Shown one piece after another: positions 54,629 through 64,000 of a DNA stretch of 64,000 nucleotides (the stretch's first letter is position 1; each line of letters starts with the position of its first letter). The stretch spans positions 5,189,644 to 5,253,643 of the forward strand of contig OZ244821.1 in NCBI GenBank assembly GCA_965220325.1. Direction: 5' to 3'. The translations under genes and the position numbers were made by a program. The notes under the pieces are model-generated. The model saw only the letters and a program-made list of their open reading frames with translations, had not been told where the DNA came from and searched no databases. Source of the stretch: Candidatus Poribacteria bacterium (GTDB taxonomy: Bacteria > Poribacteria > WGA-4E > WGA-3G).

Positions 54629-56608
54629 CTAAAGTGTTTTTTCTTTTTTCAATCTCCTTCTTGCACACCAATAAGCAAACCGGCGAAGATAGTAACCGAG
54701 ATTTTTGTGGATTTTCTTGAACTCCGGCACAAATGGACACCTTCCGCCGAGGACAACCAGTTCCATCTTGGCACGCGTCATCGCGACATAGAAGACACGC
54801 CGTTCCTCTGTCAGTGTGCTGTCGCGACGCGGAAAACGACGCTCCAGTGTGTTATGGATGAGGATAACCTTCTCCCACTCCCGACCTTTCGATTTATGGA
54901 TTGTCGTTACTTCCGGTGCCCCGGGATGGTTGGCGAGCATCGCTTGAATCTGATCGGTTTCATAGTTGGTGCGCGCCAAAACGGCTATCTCTTGGGACGA
55001 TTCCAATTCGTGTAATAACGTGGCTGCGACGGTTTCAGGGGTCGTCTCAACGATTTTGATGTGCTGTTGCATCGGGTTGTGAGCGCGGAGATTTTTGCGG
55101 ATACGTGGTGCGTTGCGCTCAATCAACGCTCTGGCGTGTTCAACGATTGTCGATGTAGAACGGTAGTTACGTGTAATTTCATATTTTGTTACGTCTTTCC
55201 GATCCGTGAATGTGAGCATAATCTCTGAGTTGCCACCACGGAACCCGTAGATCGCCTGATCGTCGTCACCGACAGCGAAGAGGTTTTCGGATAGGCATTC
55301 AATCAATCGGAAGTCGGCGGGTGCAATATCTTGGAACTCGTCAACGAGGACGTACGGGTATTTGTCGCGGTAGATTTGACGGAGGTCAGGGTTCGTCTCA
55401 AGTAGGTTTGCGGCGTGGATGATCATATCCTCGAAATCGACTGCATTCGCTTCGGCTTTCCGGTTTTCGTATGTGATAGCAAATGCTCGCGCGACGGGAT
55501 CGTCAAGTGTGTTTGGGTCGAACAGCCCTGTGGTGACCTGTCGTTTCGCTCGCATAACAATCTCTTTTATGTCGTTGAAACGGTCGCGGAGATTCTCGAA
55601 ATCGGGATGTGTGTCGAAATTATCTTCATAAGGGATGTTGAAATGCTGGCAGAACATCTCAAGGAACAGTTGGTTGCTGTATCTTACCCTTTCTGGATTC
55701 CCTCGGTTGAATACCGCCCAATTTTTGTGTTTTTTTATCTCTTTTTCTATCCAAGTAGAGGCTTCTGTCAAAGACACTTTGTGAAGAACCTCAAACGAGA
55801 AGCGTTTAGTCACATTGTTTTCGATTATCTTATGGATGCTCTCTGGATCTGTGGTATACCCGATGTGAGCTGTAATATCTGTCAGGGATTTAATTTTATA
55901 GATGACTCCATGAGTATTGTTACTCTTTTCTGATACTTTTTCTATTCCTTGAACCAAATCCAAATTAATCACGCTACGGTCTTTGTAGAAATTGATCCAG
56001 TGTGCTTCGCGACGGTTTGCGTTTCGTCCCGGCACGCGTTCAATTACCTCAAAACTGAATTGTGTTGCATCTTCGGATCGGATCGCCTGTCGGAGTCTAT
56101 CGTTTGATGAATGGTCGAAGTGTTCTTTTTCACGCCGTTCTAGGTTCGTGGTCTGCCCGATATAGCATCTGCCGGTCTTTCGACTCTCAATTTTATAGAT
56201 AGCCACGTCGATTGTATCAGCTTCACGTTCAATCTGTCTCCGTTCTTCTCCGACGATTTGATCAATCTGTCCCGACCAGATTTCCGGAATTCGGTTGAAT
56301 CCTGCGCGTTGATGGTTTTCAGTGATAATGTCTTTACCGAAGGCGTGGAGTGTGCGGATGATAGGTTTGCTGGATGCGGCGTGGTTTGATACTGCGAGTG
56401 CGCGCCCGATGCGGGTCTCCATTTCTTCAACGGCTTTTCTGTTGAAAGCGATGGCGAGGATATGTGCCGGTAGGATATTGTGTGTTTGGATGAGATTTAG
56501 AATCCGTGCCGTAACGACTGTAGTTTTACCGCTGCCGGGTCCTGCGATGACGATTGCGGGTCCTGTGACGTGGTTGATGGCGTTTTCTTGGTTTCTGTCG
56601 AGATTCAT
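54629..56608 (-). CDS. UvrD/Rep-like SF1 helicase with inserted GIY-YIG nuclease domains
   Basis: AGPGSGKT, TLH, LVDEFQD, VGDDDQAIYGFRG, NYRS, TIHKSKGREW, EERRVFYVAMTRAK; AIYKI..CYIGQT..RREKEH and VIYKI..HIGYT insertions. Confidence 0.85.
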   Translation of the reverse strand: MNLDRNQENAINHVTGPAIVIAGPGSGKTTVVTARILNLIQTHNILPAHILAIAFNRKAVEEMETRIGRALAVSNHAASSKPIIRTLHAFGKDIITENHQRAGFNRIPEIWSGQIDQIVGEERRQIEREADTIDVAIYKIESRKTGRCYIGQTTNLERREKEHFDHSSNDRLRQAIRSEDATQFSFEVIERVPGRNANRREAHWINFYKDRSVINLDLVQGIEKVSEKSNNTHGVIYKIKSLTDITAHIGYTTDPESIHKIIENNVTKRFSFEVLHKVSLTEASTWIEKEIKKHKNWAVFNRGNPERVRYSNQLFLEMFCQHFNIPYEDNFDTHPDFENLRDRFNDIKEIVMRAKRQVTTGLFDPNTLDDPVARAFAITYENRKAEANAVDFEDMIIHAANLLETNPDLRQIYRDKYPYVLVDEFQDIAPADFRLIECLSENLFAVGDDDQAIYGFRGGNSEIMLTFTDRKDVTKYEITRNYRSTSTIVEHARALIERNAPRIRKNLRAHNPMQQHIKIVETTPETVAATLLHELESSQEIAVLARTNYETDQIQAMLANHPGAPEVTTIHKSKGREWEKVILIHNTLERRFPRRDSTLTEERRVFYVAMTRAKMELVVLGGRCPFVPEFKKIHKNLGYYLRRFAYWCARRRLKKEKTL

Positions 56609-56641
56609 ATTTTTATCGGATACGATAAAGCCGTGTTGAAT

Positions 56642-57031
56642 CTACCATACTTCATTGCCCACTGATGGTCCCGTGTCTACCTCACCTTGCCCACCATCTT
56701 CTGGCATTTGGGCTAAAAGTTCCTCAAGCGTAAATTTGGGTTTCCGGCGGCGGGGCGGTGGTGGCGTGCGATGCGGCTTGAGTTTTCCAGATTTGACAGC
56801 TTCACAGAACAAATCATAATCTGGCATTTGGGCTAAAAGTTCCTCAAGCGTAAATTTGGGTTTCCGGCGGCGGGGCGGTGGTGGCGTGCGATGCGGCTTA
56901 ATACTCACATCTGTGGCACCGGATGGAACCGCTGAAGCGGCTCCTTGCTCATCTTCTGCGCTGCGTGGCACGCTTGAAGTCCTGAGATATTTGACATACG
57001 CTATAAAAATTAAGCATTCTTTATGGGACAT
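56642..57031 (-). CDS. MazE/ChpS-like antitoxin derivative with internal duplication
   Basis: KFTLEELLAQMP twice; ends EVDTGPSVGNEVW like the MazE C-terminus; AAGGAGG RBS. Confidence 0.55.
   Translation of the reverse strand: MSHKECLIFIAYVKYLRTSSVPRSAEDEQGAASAVPSGATDVSIKPHRTPPPPRRRKPKFTLEELLAQMPDYDLFCEAVKSGKLKPHRTPPPPRRRKPKFTLEELLAQMPEDGGQGEVDTGPSVGNEVW
56700..56899. repeat. 80-bp exact direct repeat, 120-bp period
   Basis: 56700-56779 identical to 56820-56899. Confidence 0.9.
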
Positions 57032-57084
57032 AATTGCCTCCTTGTATAAGGATACCACAATTTGATTAATGCGTCAAATTTAAC

Positions 57085-57519
57085 TCACTTCGGGATGCGC
57101 CGGACCCATAGCATCAATGCGACATTCATCGCACCGATAAAACCGAAGACGTAAGATTGGATGCCTGCTAATGTGTCAAGCGAGCGGACGAGGAAAGGAC
57201 AGAAGATCGGTAAACCGAGTGCCACACAGGTGTAAAAAGTCAAAAGTTTTGAACCTTTTGCTTCCCAGAAGGTTATCTCCCGTTTTAGAACTTTTAAATA
57301 TGATTGCTGCCACAACCGAGAGGTCCACTTCCCTTGCATAAACCCTAAAGCGATCCCGAAACCAAAACCGAAACTTGACCAGCGGAGATCAATACGGACG
57401 TCGTAAGAGAGAGCTACAACCCACAGCAGTTGTCCAAGCACCGAAAGCACTATAAATGCCCAAAAGATAGGCATCTTCATATAGAAAGGAAGGAGGCGAC
57501 GTGTTAACTTATCCTGCAT
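57085..57519 (-). CDS. hypothetical membrane protein
   Basis: 144 aa with about four hydrophobic segments. Confidence 0.65.
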   Translation of the reverse strand: MQDKLTRRLLPFYMKMPIFWAFIVLSVLGQLLWVVALSYDVRIDLRWSSFGFGFGIALGFMQGKWTSRLWQQSYLKVLKREITFWEAKGSKLLTFYTCVALGLPIFCPFLVRSLDTLAGIQSYVFGFIGAMNVALMLWVRRIPK

Positions 57520-57571
57520 TTTTTATGGGCGCTTCGGAATACACTGCTTTTGAATAACAGCGTCTATTGTG

Positions 57572-58372
57572 CTAAAGATTCGCTTTGACGTAATTAACAG
57601 CGTTCTTGAAGATTGCGAGTCCGTCACCTTCTTCAGTTGCAGTGTCTTGTGCCTGCGAAAATCGAGTCCAGCGCGGGTGATTCCATTTCGTTAGAAACCG
57701 TTCGGGGTGTGGCATCAGACCAAATATCCTACCAGTCGTGTCACAGATACCGGCGATGTCGGCATCCGAACCGTTCGGGTTTTTCGGATATTCACTCTCG
57801 GCATACCGAAATACGACTTGATTGTTTGCCTCTAATTCAGCCAACACATCTGCGGGTGCGGTGAACCGTCCCTCAGCATGTGCAACAGGGAGATAGACGC
57901 TCGGTTTGATGTTTTTCGTAAAGACACACGGACTCTCTTGTGTCTCTAAATCTACCCACCGACACTCAAACTTTGCGGAGGTATTCATGGCGAGTGTCGC
58001 GCGCTGCGTCATCTGTGATGTGCCGTTAGCAGATGTGGATACGCCCGGTAACAAGCCAGTCCGAACAAGGACTTGGAACCCGTTGCATATACCGATGACG
58101 AGTTTACCGTCCCCAACGAACCGGTTGAGTGCATCTGTCAGTTTATGTTTCATCTCGACTGCCAACAGTATGCCCGCTGAAATGTCATCACCGTAGGAGA
58201 AACCACCCGGAATGGCGAGGATCTGATAGTCGGATAGGTTAACTTTACCAGAGATGAGGTTTTGGATATGGACTAACGCTGTCTCCGCACCGGCGAATTG
58301 GAAAGCGGTATCCGTTTCTGCGTCGCAGTTAGTCCCTGCGGTTCGTAAGATGAGTACTTTAGGTTGCGTCAT
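57572..58372 (-). CDS. purQ: FGAM synthase glutaminase subunit
   Basis: GTNCD, PGGFSYGD, GICNGFQ, AHAEG, NPNGS, MPHPER. Confidence 0.97.
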   Translation of the reverse strand: MTQPKVLILRTAGTNCDAETDTAFQFAGAETALVHIQNLISGKVNLSDYQILAIPGGFSYGDDISAGILLAVEMKHKLTDALNRFVGDGKLVIGICNGFQVLVRTGLLPGVSTSANGTSQMTQRATLAMNTSAKFECRWVDLETQESPCVFTKNIKPSVYLPVAHAEGRFTAPADVLAELEANNQVVFRYAESEYPKNPNGSDADIAGICDTTGRIFGLMPHPERFLTKWNHPRWTRFSQAQDTATEEGDGLAIFKNAVNYVKANL

Positions 58373-58413
58373 TATTGCCCCTTACTATGTTTAACACACG
58401 TTTCGCTTAAAGG

Positions 58414-60822
58414 TTACGAATGCAAAGGTGTTTGCCATGCGGATTTAAGGACATCAATTGCAGTCTCAATGATCGGATGCCCTGATTTCCCTGTGATGAC
58501 GAATTCCGGTGCCGCTGTGACGGTGCCGAGGTAGCCTATCGGTACGCCTGACATGTGGTTTTCGTAAGCGTCTCGGTGTTCTGGTTCAACCTCGACAATA
58601 AAACGGCTGTTCGATTCAGAAAATAGGAGATAGTCGTCAGCATCGGTCTCATCGCCTGTCGGGATGTTATCAAGATTCAACCTCATTCCGTATCCACCAG
58701 CGAACGCCATCTCTGCCGCTGCTACACCGATCCCGCCTTCAGAGCAGTCGTGACAAGAACGCGCCAACCCACTGTTAATAGCACTGCTGAGCCGTTCCAT
58801 CGTCAACTTGGCTTCATCGGGCCGGACGACAGGTGCGCTGTTGCCGATAAACCCGTGGATACCGAAGTAGTGTGAACCGCCCAATTCAGTGTATGTGTTA
58901 CCAATGACATAGATGAGATTATCCGGTGCTTTTACATCCATTGTAACGGCGTTACGGATGTCTGGAATGACACAAATCGCGGATATAAGGAGCGTTGACG
59001 GAATCGCCCGTTGCTCGCCGGTTGTTGTATCTCGGTATTCGTTATAGAGGCTATCCTTCCCGGAGATGAAGGGGGTGCCGTAGGCGGTTGCGATGTCATA
59101 ACACGCTTTCGCTGCTCGGACTAACTCGCCGAGGCGGTCCGGTTTGTCCGGGTTGCCCCAGCAGAAATTGTCTAACAACGCTGTCTTTTCGAGGGTTCCA
59201 CCGACAGCAACGATGTTGCGTAAAGCCTCGTCAATTGCGGATGCCGCGCTGAGATACGGGTCTACGTCGCTATATTTTGGGTTAATACCGTTGGCGATGA
59301 TGACCCCTTTACGGCTCCCTAAGACCGGCGTAATAACGCACGCATCGCTGGGTCCATCGTTTGCTACACCGACGAGCGGGTTGATAACCACACCGCCTTG
59401 CACACCGTGGTCGTATTGGCGAATGACAGATTCTTTACTGGCGATGTTCGGACTTGCGAGCAGTCGTTTGAGATCATCCGTGTAGGGGGGGGTTCCAACC
59501 CCGATGCCTTTGTCTCGGGACGGCATTTCTGGATGCTTCGGTGGCTGCCAAACCGCCGCTTTCACAGGCTTCGGGAGTCCGTTATGTAGGAATTCCATCT
59601 CTAAGTCAGCGACGATCGCGCCTTCATAGAAAACCTGCAACCTGTGTGTATCCGTGAAAGTTCCGAGGACGGTGGCTTCAACGAATTCTGCTTCACAGAT
59701 AGTTATCAATTCCGATAGGTTTTCGGGTGGCACGGCGATAACCATGCGTTCCTGTGCTTCGGAGAGCCAGATTTCCCACGGGGCGAGTCCTTCATATTTC
59801 AAGGAGACGCGTTCGAGGTGTACCTCTGCGCCTATATGTGCGCCCATCTCACCGACAGCGGACGAGAACCCTCCCGCGCCGCAATCAGTTATGGAGCGAT
59901 ATAGGTTGCGGTCGCGCGCTTGTAACAACGCATCAACGATCTTTTTCTCCATAATCGGGTTGCCGATCTGTACGACGCTGCCGAGTCCCTCGGAGGTATC
60001 ATCGAGTTCAGCGGAGGAGAAGGTTGCCCCGTGGATTCCGTCGCGTCCGGTTTGTCCGCCGATTGCGACGACGAGATCCCCAGGTTCAACGGATTTTTCA
60101 CATCGGTTTCTCGGTATGAGTCCGACGTTTCCACAAAAGACGAGTGGGTTTGCGGTGTAGCGGGTGTCAAAGAGGATAGCACCGTTCGCTGTCGGAATGC
60201 CCATCCGGTTGCCATAGTCGCGCACGCCAGCAACGACCCCTTTAAAGACGCGTTTCGGATGAAGTGTGCCTTTCGGTAGCTGTGCGTAAGCTGTATCCGG
60301 CATCCCGAAACAGAAGACATCCGTATTCAGGATCGGTTTTGCACCAAGTCCCGTGCCGAGTGAATCGCGAATCACACCGCCGATGCCGGTACCCGCACCA
60401 CCGTAAGGTTCAATCGCTGACGGGTGGTTATGCGTTTCGACTTTGAAGACGAGGTTGAATGTATCATCGAATTCGATGATGCCAGCGTTGTCTGAAAAGA
60501 CTGAAACACACCACGGCTTCGCTATTTCTTCGGTTGCACGTTGAATGTAGCTCGGGAACAAACCGTCAATCTGTTCAGGTTCTTTTCCTTTTTCGGAATA
60601 GCGGATGATGCTTTTAAACGTTTTGTGAACGCAATGCTCAGACCAAGTTTGGGCGATGGTCTCTATTTCTACATCGGTTGGGTTGCGTCCCAACGTTCCG
60701 AAATGTGTCTGGATCGCCTTCATCTCGTTTAGGTTTAGGGACAGCGTTCCCTCTCGACTGATACGCATCAGTTCAGCATCATCTGCGTTTAGGATCTCTA
60801 TTTCGTTAACCGTATTGGGCAT
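58414..60822 (-). CDS. purL: FGAM synthase subunit PurL
   Basis: WSEHCVHK, VETHNHPSAIEP, TGRDGIHGA, DCGAGG, SEAQERM, SGKDSLYN, FSESNSR. Confidence 0.97.
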   Translation of the reverse strand: MPNTVNEIEILNADDAELMRISREGTLSLNLNEMKAIQTHFGTLGRNPTDVEIETIAQTWSEHCVHKTFKSIIRYSEKGKEPEQIDGLFPSYIQRATEEIAKPWCVSVFSDNAGIIEFDDTFNLVFKVETHNHPSAIEPYGGAGTGIGGVIRDSLGTGLGAKPILNTDVFCFGMPDTAYAQLPKGTLHPKRVFKGVVAGVRDYGNRMGIPTANGAILFDTRYTANPLVFCGNVGLIPRNRCEKSVEPGDLVVAIGGQTGRDGIHGATFSSAELDDTSEGLGSVVQIGNPIMEKKIVDALLQARDRNLYRSITDCGAGGFSSAVGEMGAHIGAEVHLERVSLKYEGLAPWEIWLSEAQERMVIAVPPENLSELITICEAEFVEATVLGTFTDTHRLQVFYEGAIVADLEMEFLHNGLPKPVKAAVWQPPKHPEMPSRDKGIGVGTPPYTDDLKRLLASPNIASKESVIRQYDHGVQGGVVINPLVGVANDGPSDACVITPVLGSRKGVIIANGINPKYSDVDPYLSAASAIDEALRNIVAVGGTLEKTALLDNFCWGNPDKPDRLGELVRAAKACYDIATAYGTPFISGKDSLYNEYRDTTTGEQRAIPSTLLISAICVIPDIRNAVTMDVKAPDNLIYVIGNTYTELGGSHYFGIHGFIGNSAPVVRPDEAKLTMERLSSAINSGLARSCHDCSEGGIGVAAAEMAFAGGYGMRLNLDNIPTGDETDADDYLLFSESNSRFIVEVEPEHRDAYENHMSGVPIGYLGTVTAAPEFVITGKSGHPIIETAIDVLKSAWQTPLHS

Positions 60823-60989
60823 TTTTTCTCCGGTGTTTGTTAACTAAAGTTTGGACAGTTTCTGTCTGTTTGATGTTAAGTTTTCAAGGGACTATCTATT
60901 TTGGGGCAAATTTCGCATACAAACGGAACCCCGCACTACAGTTTGCGAAAAATTAGGAGTGTTCAGCGTTATTTTCGGCGCGAAGAGGC

Positions 60990-61012
60990 ACAACCTAACA
61001 GGTTATGCTACA
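60990..61012 (-). repeat. GTAG REP, copy 2
   Basis: Identical to 54490-54512. Confidence 0.75.
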
Positions 61013-61022
61013 AGGTGGCAAC

Positions 61023-61152
61023 TTAGTGTTCTGCCAACGTTGAAATGAAAGGTAAACCCGGCTCGTAGTAGTGCGATTTATCGCACGTCCTAAGGTGCAA
61101 TGAATTGCGCCACTATGAACCACCTATCAGGTTAGATGTGACAAACTATTAG
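61023..61152. repeat. GTAGTAG REP doublet with TAGTG...CAAC TIR-like arms
   Basis: Inverted homolog of 22196-22296. Confidence 0.7.
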
Positions 61153-61207
61153 GTTATTATATCACAATTTTGGTTAGACAGTGGCCCGAATTTCTGATGG
61201 CAGTACA
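61153..61207 (-). repeat. uninterrupted copy of the group II intron target (contains TGnTATAAT)
   Basis: Matches 63008-63016 joined to 63741-63787. Confidence 0.85.
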
Positions 61208-61572
61208 CCTTTGAAACCACTGAAAATATCACGGAGTTTTATCGCTATATCGCTAATTGTTCCTTTATCACCAAGATTAAGCATCTCCATGTTTTCAGTC
61301 GCCGTATCAGCGGTTTTGTAGTAAATACAATATGTGAAACGATAAGAACGGAACCAACTGTCTATATCCATGGCTGAAATTTCCCCTTTAAATCCTAAAA
61401 CTACCATTTTAACCATTTTTTCATCCAAAGGGGGTTTTAAGTGCGTTAATAGCAATTCCTCGTAAAGAACCCATTTAATTTCTACTAATGACCAATCTAT
61501 AGAAAATTCTTCCGCTTCTTCTTTGAGAATTTGTTCAAATTTTTTGTCAGCAACAACATTGATAGTTTCCAT
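61174..61572 (-). CDS. hypothetical protein
   Basis: AT-rich 132-aa ORF coupled to the upstream gene (TAATG, GGAGG RBS); last ~10 codons lie in the direct repeat. Confidence 0.6.
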   Translation of the reverse strand: METINVVADKKFEQILKEEAEEFSIDWSLVEIKWVLYEELLLTHLKPPLDEKMVKMVVLGFKGEISAMDIDSWFRSYRFTYCIYYKTADTATENMEMLNLGDKGTISDIAIKLRDIFSGFKGVLPSEIRATV

Positions 61573-62438
61573 TATAAACCTCCATCCTTGATAAGTTCGT
61601 CTGAAGTAGGGGCATCTAAAAGTGTTGATGCCCTAACATCAAAATTAAATCCGAATTTCTGAACGACTGATCTGAGAGTTACTGTAATCCAATCCTTCGC
61701 GTAAGGCGAAACAATGACTTCATCAATCAACATACTTACATCAATATTGAAAAGCATACCGATGTCACATATATCTGGTAAACCAGTCTCAAAAAAAGAA
61801 TCTACATTTTCTACAGTCTGATTATTAAGAGCATCCGTAACGAATGGATCAATATCAACGATTAACCGAACTTCCTGTTCATGTTCGTATTCTTTTCTTT
61901 TTTGAAGATAAGGAAAATATGTCAATTTTTTAGCCAAAGGGATATCGTTTTGTTGAAAGTTTTGCATATATGGATCGTCATCCGTGTTACCGTAGATATA
62001 CTCTATTTTACCGATATAAATAGAATATTCGCTTAACAAACTATTTTTCATTTTTTCCCCGGTTGTTTTGATAGCAACACCACTATTGCGCATGTGATAT
62101 TTTTCCCACATCGCCATTGACTCTACTACATTCTGATGCCAACAGTTACACATAACATATTTACGTGAAGCTTCATGTCTCTTCATAATTTCTTCGACAA
62201 ATACTTCTGATTCTGATGAGGTAACACTCATGAGTGATTGTTTGTAGGCATCCACAATACTTTGGGGTATAAATCCTTCGTATGGATCCTCGAATTTATC
62301 AGCTCTTGTAAAATACAAAGCTTCTGTATCTAACAGATTAACGAATACCTCAAAGTTCGTGTATCGCCACAAAATATCTTCATCGTTTGGAGGGTTAATT
62401 CCGTCTAATTCTTCATACATTAAAAGCACCTTATACAA
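61572..62438 (-). CDS. DUF2971-like protein
   Basis: LWRY..F...LYF.....FEDPYEG, CWH....ESMAMW..Y, KRKEYEHEQEVRL. Confidence 0.7.
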   Translation of the reverse strand: MYKVLLMYEELDGINPPNDEDILWRYTNFEVFVNLLDTEALYFTRADKFEDPYEGFIPQSIVDAYKQSLMSVTSSESEVFVEEIMKRHEASRKYVMCNCWHQNVVESMAMWEKYHMRNSGVAIKTTGEKMKNSLLSEYSIYIGKIEYIYGNTDDDPYMQNFQQNDIPLAKKLTYFPYLQKRKEYEHEQEVRLIVDIDPFVTDALNNQTVENVDSFFETGLPDICDIGMLFNIDVSMLIDEVIVSPYAKDWITVTLRSVVQKFGFNFDVRASTLLDAPTSDELIKDGGL

Positions 62439-62495
62439 TCAATATCTCTGTCAGGACTTATGCATTTTTCTATGATAACGGACATATTACACACT

Positions 62496-62990
62496 TCATG
62501 TGTTAATTACGGGAGCGTCGGTTTTATGGGCGGCGAACTGAAGGCATGCCAGAATATCTTCGGCTTCCAGGTCCGGCATTTCTTCAAGAATCTCTTTAAC
62601 AGAAAGCCCGCTTGCCAGTAATCCTAAAACATCGGTGACCCGAATCCGCATGCCCCGAACACACGGACGGCCACCACACTGCCTCGGATTGGAAGTAATT
62701 CGACTTAACCGAAGTTTCTGATCAACGGTGATTTTGAGACTTGTGTCGCCTACTTGTTCTGCAAGTTCGCCTGCAATTTGGAAATCTGACCTTGCTTCCG
62801 ACAACCGCCTCAGTTTGCCTTTGGTCTCGCCTCGATTATAGTAAGCGCGGGCAAAATCTGGTTTTAGACGAATTGCTGCGTTATAGTCCGCTATAGCGCC
62901 TTTATAGTCGCCTGCCTCGTTTTTCTCATTACCCAAGGTGAAGTGAGTCTCGGCAGATAACGGTTTGTGGTCAGGTGTCATTTGAATCAT
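62496..62990 (-). CDS. TPR-DUF433 fusion protein
   Basis: GDYKGAIADYNAAIRLKPDFARAYYNRG TPRs + ITSNPRQCGGRPCVRGMRIRV...PDLEAEDILACLQFAA (DUF433). Confidence 0.8.
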   Translation of the reverse strand: MIQMTPDHKPLSAETHFTLGNEKNEAGDYKGAIADYNAAIRLKPDFARAYYNRGETKGKLRRLSEARSDFQIAGELAEQVGDTSLKITVDQKLRLSRITSNPRQCGGRPCVRGMRIRVTDVLGLLASGLSVKEILEEMPDLEAEDILACLQFAAHKTDAPVINT

Positions 62991-63016
62991 CTCCTTCCAT
63001 TTAGACTGTTATTATA

Positions 63017-63740
63017 GTAGGGTAGCGCAGGACGTTCACACGTCCCTTGCCCCCTCCAAACCGTGCGTGCGACTTTCACCGCACACGGAGACCTTCCAGT
63101 TGAATATGGCGGTAAACACTTTAGGATAATATATCCACATTTACTTTGTCTCTGTCTCATACCCAGAAGGTTCTATAGTTTGATATGCCTTACTGGGTAT
63201 GATTGCTCTCCCTATAGATAAAATGTTTCAGAGATATTTCAATGTATTCAACCTGATTATGCTTCTCTCTTGTGAGAGTTCCTAATCTCCTCAACCCTGC
63301 GGACTTCAAGAGTCCGTTTAGGTTCTTTTCAACTCTCTAATAGTAGACTTCACAGATGGATTTAGGAGTATCCTTTACCCCGATACATTGGGCATCCCAA
63401 TGCTGTATTCTCTCAACCTAATATAATTGCCAAAAGAAGCAATTTCAGATACCTATTGTGAAGAGGTATCTTTAGAATACCATAGTTTTTCAAGGCGTTA
63501 TCTATGTCACCAATAACGAGGCTTACGGATATTCAACTTTCGTTTCTCCATGTCAATCCATTATCGGACGTGCCAATTTTGGACGCTCTTATGAGTTTCG
63601 CCTATGTCCGCAGACATGCGCCATTTCCTCTTGCTTCCCACGTTGCTGTTTCCAACAACGCAGTTGGAGTGAGATATGCGGTGTTAGGTTCACCGAGTAG
63701 GAATTAAACCTACATTCTACTATTTTCTGTTGAAACGCAC
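63017..63740 (-). mobile_element. ORF-less group II intron (724 nt), domain V apparently disrupted
   Basis: 5' GTGCG; D1 closing TTTCAAC/GTTGAAA; EBS1 loop UCACAAU complementary to 5' exon ATTGTGA; DV CCGTGTGCGGTGAAAGTCGCACGCACGGTTT; DVI ending ACCCTAC; both boundaries fixed by the intronless site at 61153-61207. Confidence 0.88.
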
Positions 63741-63825
63741 TCACAATCTTGGTTTAGACAGTGGCCCGAATTTCCGATGGCAGTACAAAACATCAGCACT
63801 CCAGCTATCCTATGGTCATTTGATA

Positions 63826-64000
63826 CTATTTCCGTATTAACATCTTTCGCGTGGCTGTGAAATTACCTGCTTTGAGCGTATAGAAATAGACACCGCTTGC
63901 TACAGGTTCACCCTGCGCGTTTCTACCATCCCAATACGCTGCCCGGCTCTTGCCTTGATAGATACCGACAGGTTGGTGTCCCAATGCCAACGTGCGTACC
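63826..64000 (-). CDS. C-terminus of a FlgD-Ig/T9SS-like sorting-domain protein (truncated by window edge)
   Basis: ...LGHQPVGIYQGKSRAAYWDGRNAQGEPVASGVYFYTLKAGNFTATRKMLIRK*, homologous to the tail of 19397-22105. Confidence 0.85.
   Translation of the reverse strand, partial: VRTLALGHQPVGIYQGKSRAAYWDGRNAQGEPVASGVYFYTLKAGNFTATRKMLIRK

Follow-up and report, generated by a model that had tools for sequence, protein, structure and literature searches.

The window analysed here is a stretch of 64,000 nt from a Candidatus Poribacteria bacterium (assembly GCA_965220325.1, contig OZ244821.1, positions 5,189,644 to 5,253,643 of the forward strand), and positions 63017-63740 of its minus strand are a group II intron of 724 nt without an open reading frame (ORF) for an intron protein. 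The intron is inserted in the left end of an insertion sequence (IS) of the IS3 family. The explanation preferred here, to which a probability of about 0.8 is given, is that a non-autonomous intron of type IIB retrohomed into the IS3 left end with help in trans and is now probably stranded there.

Identity and boundaries of the intron

Read on the minus strand, the DNA passes from AAGATTGTGA into the intron (GTGCG...CTACCCTAC, 63740 down to 63017) and then into TATAATAAC. The Rfam model RF00029, which describes domains 5 and 6 (D5-D6), matched 63017-63097 (minus) over the full model with 49.9 bits and an E value of 1.2e-7, the gathering score being 40 bits, and the 3' limit of the match fell exactly on 63017. 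It was the sole gathering-level Rfam match of the 64-kb window. The termini, GUGCG at 63736-63740 and a 3' end CUACCCUAC closing with UAC at 63017-63019, follow the 5' GUGYG and 3' AY rule. Contigs from two public sequencing runs (X17 and X5) join 63016 directly to 63741, an exact skip of 724 nt that lends independent support to the boundaries. The splice sites proposed in a first-pass annotation, made from the sequence alone, were thus borne out, and its coordinates were correct throughout.

The same annotation had called the intron ORF-less, and this description stands. The longest ORFs within it have 51-67 amino acids (aa), and six-frame searches of the genome for the GIIM and RVT_1 domains gave no match in the window or near the second copy of the intron in this genome (copy 2). 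Since neither copy gave such a match, both lack the ORF for a reverse transcriptase (RT)/maturase in domain 4 (D4) that characterises the autonomous retroelement form.

The catalytic parts could be placed at the 3' end. Domain 5 (63058-63095, minus) has its GAAA loop of the GNRA type and its 2-nt AC bulge, and the cmscan alignment puts a 4-nt insertion in it, a UCU/GUCU bulge inside the catalytic-triad position. The J5/6 junction and domain 6 (63017-63057, minus) form a GNRA-capped stem in the consensus fold, in which the A at 63023, 7 nt from the intron 3' end, is unpaired and would be the bulged branch point. When D5 and D6 were folded together for 19 relatives, compensatory changes were found in 14 of the 30 predicted pairs, and the D6 pairs co-varied. 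Between the two copies in this genome the basal part of D6 shows a G-C to A-U compensation; their distal D6 stems are unrelated, both being GNRA-capped. A probable D4 stub at 63141-63221 (minus) was inferred from BLAST break points: the matches of ORF-bearing and IS-interrupted relatives, which carry their ORF or other insertions here, break at intron positions of about 453-653 and 529-595.

The bulge in domain 5 is a recurrent feature of the family. In the consensus fold of the 19 relatives, columns 22-24 are bulged in eight (the window intron, L009, L010, L011, L014, L015, L029 and copy 2, L040), and the remaining 11 have the canonical AGC form. The bulge comprises 1-4 nt, is rich in U (U, UU or UCU/GUCU) and lies exactly at the expected third base of the triad; the bulged introns have G, not A, at the first triad position. 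Several members tolerate a bulge in the most conserved part of the ribozyme, including L029, which bears an RT with an intact ORF.

Exon recognition and changes of target

The pairings with the exons were followed in an alignment of 11 full-length ORF-less relatives, i.e., the window copy, copy 2 and nine introns from other genomes. A hairpin at 63448-63470 (minus), hereafter hairpin A, folds with a 9-nt loop, CUUCACAAU, which contains exon-binding site 1 (EBS1), UCACAAU, at 63455-63461; all seven bases are complementary to the exon end ATTGTGA. A perfect 7-mer within a 9-nt loop is expected by chance at about 2 in 10,000, and in all 11 introns of the alignment EBS1 complements the last 6-7 bases of its own 5' exon (tallied by eye), so that the match is more than chance. 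In L008, for example, EBS1 is GCACAAU and the exon ends in ..TTGTGC; EBS1 of copy 2 has one mismatch, at -1. The EBS1 pairing and hairpin proposed in the first-pass annotation are in agreement with these results.

Two further pairings were recognised by co-variation. EBS2 (UUGGU, 63509-63513, minus) faces the intron-binding site IBS2, ACCAA, at exon positions -13 to -9, and this alignment position is complementary to the same exon bases in seven of the 11 introns, each with a different sequence. For EBS3, the best co-varying column corresponds to the A at 63375 (minus) in GGGGUA-A-AGG, whose partner is the base that opens the 3' exon, T at 63016. This column and the +1 base form nine Watson-Crick pairs and one wobble pair in the 11 sequences, the sole miss being copy 2. 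The U just 5' of EBS1 is unable to pair with the U at +1. Because EBS3 pairs with +1, EBS2 is present and the ribozyme measures about 700 nt, the intron is classified from its sequence as IIB-like and not as class C.

Next to hairpin A lies a second hairpin, hairpin B (63425-63444, minus), whose loop no longer fits the exon and which, judging from the loops of relatives, appears to be a relic of the ancestral EBS1 hairpin. The loop of its homologue complements the intron's own 5' exon in all six relatives L009, L010, L011, L014, L015 and L018, and the hairpin is deleted in L007 and L008. The tandem arrangement at 63425-63470 (minus) recurs in L006, L009, L010 and L040; the more distant relatives L014, L015 and L018 have a single hairpin of the EBS1 type. 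In the subfamily of the window intron it is the upstream hairpin that pairs with the exon, and its downstream neighbour is in decay; L009 and L010 use the downstream hairpin for this pairing. This pattern looks like retargeting by hairpin duplication, the relatives illustrating one way in which a tandemly duplicated EBS1 hairpin may alter target specificity.

The target site

The repeated sequence that received the intron belongs to an insertion sequence of the IS3 family, of which it forms the left end. The 5' exon (63741-63787, minus) is the left terminal inverted repeat, as seen from the nhmmer family and the intact IS copies, with its tip TGTACTG at 63787; many contigs diverge at 63787/63788, the boundary of the repeat. 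IBS2 (63749-63753) and IBS1 (63741-63747, including the TG of the putative extended -10 motif) lie within it. The 3' exon (62991-63016, minus) is the rest of the left end, with TATAAT at 63011-63016 and a leader with the ribosome-binding site (RBS) AAGGAG at 62991-62996; it is homologous with the leaders of intact IS copies up to GGAG. The junction falls between TGTGA and TATAAT, so the insertion does separate TG-n from TATAAT as the first-pass annotation had noted.

An nhmmer profile of the flanking element, built from five empty copies, found 13 copies in the 6.1-Mb genome at E <= 3e-5. Intact IS copies of about 1.32 kb encode OrfA (98 aa, HTH_Tnp_1, 6.8e-14), which begins about 25-30 nt past TATAAT and shares with OrfB (282 aa, rve, 2.6e-18) an overlap that contains eight consecutive A. 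Their left end reads, in order, the terminal inverted repeat with tip TGTACTG, ACCAAGATTGTGnTAYAAT and the leader with GAAAGGAG. The terminal repeat of about 37 nt recurs inverted about 1.3 kb away as the right end of the IS; in the copy G000:C1:146562-147884 the left and right ends align over about 37 nt. The transposase genes, the overlapping ORFs with the A8 run and the matching right-end repeat identify the element as an IS3 end. For the same reasons a free promoter cassette or a miniature inverted-repeat transposable element was rejected as the nature of the 55-nt repeat. The claim that a repeated promoter element is targeted thus holds in that the target is repeated and contains TGTGATATAAT, but the element is not free-standing.

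About 10 left ends in the genome keep the TATAAT region, four of them with transposase genes and the others solo or truncated, and the intron fills two of the about 10. The motif TGTGnTATAAT is conserved in 8/10 left ends of this genome, and across the phylum 139 of 176 genomes contain AGATTGTGnTAYAAT, with more than 800 occurrences in all (15 for the reversed control). The possibility of a class C intron at an attC-like site was rejected, as EBS2 is present, the RT of sister introns is nearer to TeI4h than to the RTs of class C (IIC) introns, and the minus strand from 63741 to 63826 showed no terminator-like site.

Occupied and empty sites

An empty copy of the target lies in the same window at 61153-61207 (minus). 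It is a solo IS left end with IBS2, IBS1 and IBS3 intact, and its insertion point, between 61162 and 61161, is 1855 nt from the filled one. The 47-nt 5' flanks of the two sites are 93.6% identical and the 9 nt past the junction (TATAATAAC) are identical, which confirms the empty target described about 1.85 kb away in the first-pass annotation. Several more near-perfect empty targets are present elsewhere in the genome. The count of filled and empty sites and the search for RT-encoding sisters, which that annotation had suggested as checks, gave about 10 left ends with two filled in this genome, and sisters in other genomes.

The second filled left end holds copy 2 (G000:C1:2920099-2920826; L040), which is 97% identical to the window intron. 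Both RF00029 matches found in the genome (150 of 536 first-look candidates scored) are ORF-less. The 47-nt IS flanks of the two copies are almost the same, and no transposase gene follows either copy; the sequences outside the repeat are unrelated and the 3' flanks differ. The region G000:C1:2918000-2929000 around copy 2 looks like a variable or defence-type island, with a GmrSD-type restriction gene, a Hypoth_Ymh gene and a 713-aa protein with a PspA/IM30 domain; an ADP-ribosylglycohydrolase gene nearby appears to be driven by another solo IS left end.

Four public runs were compared, all as assembled contigs; X5 is a DNA run from a study different from that of the best holders, and X15 and X17 are RNA libraries. 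The runs that contain the stretch are largely sponge metagenomes. A 180-nt contig of X5 leads from the TPR gene downstream of the intron through TATAAT directly into the IS repeat, with one mismatch in 157 nt, and is an intron-less allele of the window locus. In X17, one contig has the exact 724-nt skip with 47 nt on the far side, at about 93% identity and hence from a relative, and in X15 a 715-nt contig covers the intron together with 30 nt of 5' exon and may derive either from unspliced RNA or from DNA. The first-pass annotation had proposed the joint TGTGA-TATAAT in RNA as a sign of splicing. The joint does occur in the RNA library X17; however, it is also present as DNA in X5, so that the X17 contig gives no evidence of splicing. 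The reading as spliced RNA was rejected in favour of an empty allele.

Counting filled junctions across the phylum by the pattern AGATTGTGnGTGCG proved uninformative (34 matches in 30 of 176 genomes, 28 in the reversed control), and the filled junctions used here are the 10 pattern matches that coincide with intron starts detected by BLAST.

A 132-aa ORF without a Pfam match (61174-61572, minus) has its stop and last 10 codons (VLPSEIRATV) inside the empty left-end repeat; the same arrangement of ORF and repeat is found in genome G167 (L019), where the repeat holds a 163-nt 5' intron fragment. The position 63816|63817 (minus; TATCAAATG|ACCATAGG), which lies just past the stop codon of the gene upstream, is unoccupied in this genome; the homologous site in genome G130 (L018) holds another ORF-less member of the family, 688 nt long, with an EBS1 that fits CAAATG.

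Intron relatives and the search for a helper gene

By BLAST, the intron DNA was matched in 75 of the 176 genomes from the phylum; within the genus, 40 of the 64 other genomes gave matches. Among 17 5' junctions examined, nine lie within the IS left end and eight elsewhere. The site used in the window is shared by six of the nine (L005, L006, L008, L017, L019 and L022), to which copy 2 and L036 can be added; a second IS site about 20 nt further on, between leader and RBS, is used by L009, L010 and L016. In L007 the same intron is found at a non-IS site that has only GATTGTGA in common with the IS. Each change of site in the relatives is accompanied by changes in the EBS, which indicates ordinary retargeting. 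Copies at unrelated non-promoter sites had been named in the first-pass annotation as an argument against a promoter-targeting intron; such copies do exist, with matching changes in EBS1, EBS2 and EBS3.

RT-bearing relatives are 2.3-3.3 kb long and encode proteins of 560-620 aa with RVT_N, RVT_1, GIIM and HNH domains (e.g., L025). Among proteins of solved structure, the sister proteins are best matched by TeI4h (6ME0_C), a IIB protein, with 1.1e-97, well ahead of LtrA (2.3e-47) and the IIC RTs (1e-37 to 1e-41). No RT-bearing copy among those fetched lies within an IS end. Five of the RT-bearing sisters are found in tRNA-Arg genes (L026, L027, L030 and L035 in genomes G148, G175, G172 and G129, and L032 in G109): in four genomes the split in tRNA-Arg(CCT) follows tRNA position 23, in one the TCG gene is split at about position 44, and ARAGORN detects the interrupted genes only once the intron is removed in silico. 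In the present genome the tRNA-Arg(CCT) gene (G000, C1:1440190-1440265) is continuous; its counterparts in four sibling species house the RT-bearing intron.

No helper gene was found in this genome. The six-frame search for GIIM gave no match (29 of 29 candidates scored), RVT_1 was found in one ORF only, and tblastn with five sister proteins returned nothing except the locus of that ORF. It encodes 482 aa at G000:C1:4580173-4583451 (L003), immediately upstream of a Cas1 gene, and since it has no GIIM domain and adjoins Cas1 it was rejected as the intron protein; it looks like a CRISPR-associated RT. As to the proposal of mobilisation in trans, RT-encoding sisters do exist, in other genomes only, and no candidate helper was found in this one. 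Of the 11 genomes of the genus with a full-length ORF-less copy, eight have no GIIM match, six of these eight being assemblies of one or two contigs; the genus assemblies are scored as 90-96% complete, and absence in them is not proof of absence.

Nested insertions occur in the family as well. In L013 (G173) an intron is inserted in D6 of another intron, in L036 (G089) an IS3-like element on the opposite strand lies inside an intron that is itself in an IS left end, and in L028 (G114) the D4 region holds an opposite-strand ORF of 423 aa which, by eye, has a TnpB-type look.

The downstream gene and the promoter question

Downstream of the intron, a gene with TPR families and a DUF433 domain (62496-62990, minus; DUF433 2.1e-24) is fused to the IS-derived leader. 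TATAAT lies 20 nt ahead of its first ATG at 62990, as the first-pass annotation had it, and 29 nt ahead of a second ATG, at 62981, whose distance from AAGGAG is more suitable. The adjoining gene product, PurL, is 92-94% identical to proteins of Candidatus Poribacteria metagenome-assembled genomes (MAGs). In two other Poribacteria MAGs (L052 and L054) purL has an extra stretch of about 1.19 kb after about codon 53, which gave no Rfam hit that would mark it as an intron and does not form an in-frame intein either.

Based on its conservation across the IS copies and its spacing to the RBS and the transposase start codon, TGTGnTATAAT is a plausible extended -10 promoter. Solo IS left ends are fused past the RBS to unrelated genes at three or more loci, i.e., to the TPR-DUF433 gene (62991-63016), to the ADP-ribosylglycohydrolase gene (G000:C1:2924409-2924471) and, in another genome, to a gene for a signal-peptide protein (L006), which suggests repeated capture of an IS promoter by host genes. 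If TATAAT is a promoter, the intron would lie upstream of the transcription start and would be transcribed only by read-through from the upstream gene; given this position, it would have no need to splice. An altered expression of this gene through the insertion may be suggested from the motif. The one plausible effect would act at the DNA level, where the TG motif and the IS repeat upstream of TATAAT are replaced by the 3' end of the intron.

Origin and present state of the intron

In the explanation preferred here, the intron belongs to an ORF-deleted lineage of the IIB type that is common in Candidatus Poribacteria. It would have retrohomed in the past into an IS3 left end with a helper protein supplied in trans, reading its target by RNA-DNA pairing of EBS2 with ACCAA, EBS1 with ATTGTGA and EBS3 with T. 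This target overlaps TGTGA-TATAAT, the putative transposase promoter just inside the terminal inverted repeat. The IS would since have been reduced to a solo left end, its leader and RBS being fused to the TPR-DUF433 gene. As no intron RT/maturase was found in the genome, the window copy is most likely stranded; it would be immobile today and spliced poorly or by self-splicing alone. Consistent with immobility, the intron occupies two of the about 10 left ends, the perfect target at a distance of 1.85 kb is empty and the two copies are 3% apart.

Three other explanations were weighed against this one. The intron could specifically target a repeated promoter module and regulate TPR-DUF433, or the transposase, by splitting TG-n from TATAAT. 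The insertion point does lie between TGTGA and TATAAT, the motif is kept in 8/10 left ends here and is abundant in the phylum, the same site has been hit in L006, L008, L017, L019, L022 and L036, and at three or more loci a left end has become joined to a gene other than a transposase gene. However, the element bears all the marks of an IS3 end, and the sisters use the leader site 20 nt further on and many non-IS sites, always with matching EBS changes, as is expected of selfish homing guided by sequence rather than of promoter recognition. Moreover, splicing cannot reverse an insertion at the DNA level, and the occupancy is low, with two of about 10 left ends here and 10 verified junctions against more than 800 empty motifs in the phylum. 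A regulatory role of this kind is therefore considered very unlikely. That both copies arose without homing, from an IS left end that was transposed or duplicated with the intron already in place, is similarly improbable. Their nearly identical 47-nt IS flanks, with no transposase gene behind either copy, would fit such an origin, but the unrelated sequence outside the repeat and the differing 3' flanks do not. An IS3 element, moreover, transposes only with both ends present, and a right end was not found nearby. In addition, the intron-less allele in X5 and the ectopic site of L007 indicate that the intron comes and goes alone, its insertion being independent of the IS end.

The intron could also still be mobile, with a helper encoded on a plasmid, on an unbinned contig or in a co-resident strain, or by movement without protein. 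The diversified EBS sets, found even though eight of 11 genus genomes with a full-length ORF-less copy have no GIIM, the several copies per genome and the polymorphism of empty and filled alleles at the window locus could be explained in this way. On the other hand, the perfect target 1.85 kb away has stayed empty, the two copies here differ by 3%, and in G171, which has GIIM, two copies do not differ in their match statistics, which is what the presence of a helper would lead one to expect; the polymorphism may equally be old. Group II introns are not known to move in vivo without a protein. Continued mobility is thus regarded as unlikely, a little less so than the two preceding explanations. 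A broader scenario can be drawn, in which the ORF-less IIB lineage persists, retargets and perhaps still moves in protein-free genomes. It would retarget through a second EBS1 hairpin, either hairpin taking over, and its masters would reside in tRNA-Arg genes of other strains or species of the same sponge, with protein acting across genomes or another RT standing in. Placed between TG and TATAAT of the transposase promoter, such introns would become permanent silencers of the abundant IS3 transposons and of promoter-capturing host genes. This scenario is speculative and of low probability.

Several observations weigh against the explanation preferred here. A covariance-model search had been suggested in the first-pass annotation, and RF00029 recognised D5-D6 above the gathering score, but no Rfam model of domains 1-4 matched at E up to 1 in positions 55000-64000 of the window, and these domains were placed solely through BLAST homology to RT-bearing relatives, co-variation and local folds. 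The 3-4-nt bulge in the triad position makes the catalytic competence of the window D5 uncertain. Copy 2 has a non-canonical 3' flank, with mismatches at -1 and +1, and at least one of the copies was rearranged after insertion or came by another route. The genome is one contig but 94.6% complete, so a plasmid or an unbinned contig could carry the helper gene; GIIM is present in 19 of 65 genomes of the genus, and symbiont genomes from the same sponge do carry the helper gene. The joint in X5 has 23 nt on the repeat side, where the contig ends, which is under the comfort limit of 30 nt. As to the promoter, its status is argued from a conserved motif and its position, and a sigma-70 consensus scan, which requires a -35 element, flagged neither TATAAT, as a -35 is lacking. 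The scan gave 6 sites in total against a shuffle mean of 8.7 and neither supports nor excludes an extended -10 promoter. No transcription start is seen in the RNA libraries, which were examined as contigs.

Comparison with known group II introns

ORF-less introns mobilised in trans (TeI3) and introns that home into IS ends (RmInt2 in ISRm17) have already been described, and the general picture of group II intron function is left unchanged by these findings. Less usual are the lack of a detected helper gene in the genome, the tandem duplication of the EBS1 hairpin and the bulge in D5. In a 2022 survey, 888 of 13,041 introns were listed without a protein (PMC8919778). A full-text literature search returned no study of group II introns in Poribacteria. 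The window intron offers a natural case, in an uncultured phylum of sponge symbionts, of a retro-intron that uses an IS3 transposon end as a safe landing site, a "parasite of a parasite".

RmInt1 and RmInt2 are introns of class D. In Sinorhizobium meliloti they reside in ISRm2011-2 and in the inverted repeats of ISRm17, respectively, and poor splicing of RmInt1 is described as blocking the spread of its IS (PMC5894124, PMC4615759). Like these introns, the intron in Poribacteria has its natural homing site within an abundant insertion sequence; unlike them, as they are presented in the same sources, it is ORF-less, whereas RmInt1 and RmInt2 carry their own protein without an endonuclease (En) domain. 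RmInt2 can use both repeats of its IS according to PMC4615759, and the site in Poribacteria lies just inside the left repeat, within the putative promoter and leader, one per IS.

According to a 2015 review, bacterial ORF-less introns nearly always share their genome with a related protein gene, C.te.I1 of Clostridium tetani being the sole exception given there (PMC4424553). The window intron resembles C.te.I1 in this respect, and its lineage has ORF-less copies in 8/11 genomes without a detected helper, against that single exception. C.te.I1 is reported in the review to self-splice robustly; it differs from the Poribacteria intron, which has RT-bearing sisters in sibling species. Given these sisters and the 8/11 genomes without GIIM, the loss of the helper looks recent and lineage-wide.

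Class C and attC-type introns, which insert behind terminators or hairpins (PMC1702495), likewise settle in non-coding DNA beside transcription signals. However, they recognise a stem-loop, their EBS1 is short and EBS2 is lacking, whereas the Poribacteria intron has EBS1, EBS2 and EBS3 in 724 nt. Its sisters, unlike IIC introns, have En-containing proteins, which are far nearer to TeI4h than to the IIC RTs.

The introns TeI3 of Thermosynechococcus elongatus are ORF-less and are mobilised by TeI4 proteins (Mohr, Ghanem and Lambowitz 2010; PMC2882425). As far as they are described there, both systems have IIB-type ribozymes without an ORF in D4, diverged sets of EBS1, EBS2 and EBS3 for different sites, most insertions outside genes, twintrons and IS-interrupted copies. 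In T. elongatus, however, the helpers are encoded in the same genome (PMC2882425), and none was found in the Poribacteria genome. In comparison with TeI3 as reported in that study, the Poribacteria intron also differs in favouring an IS3 left end, in its tandem EBS1 hairpins and in a D5 that is often bulged.

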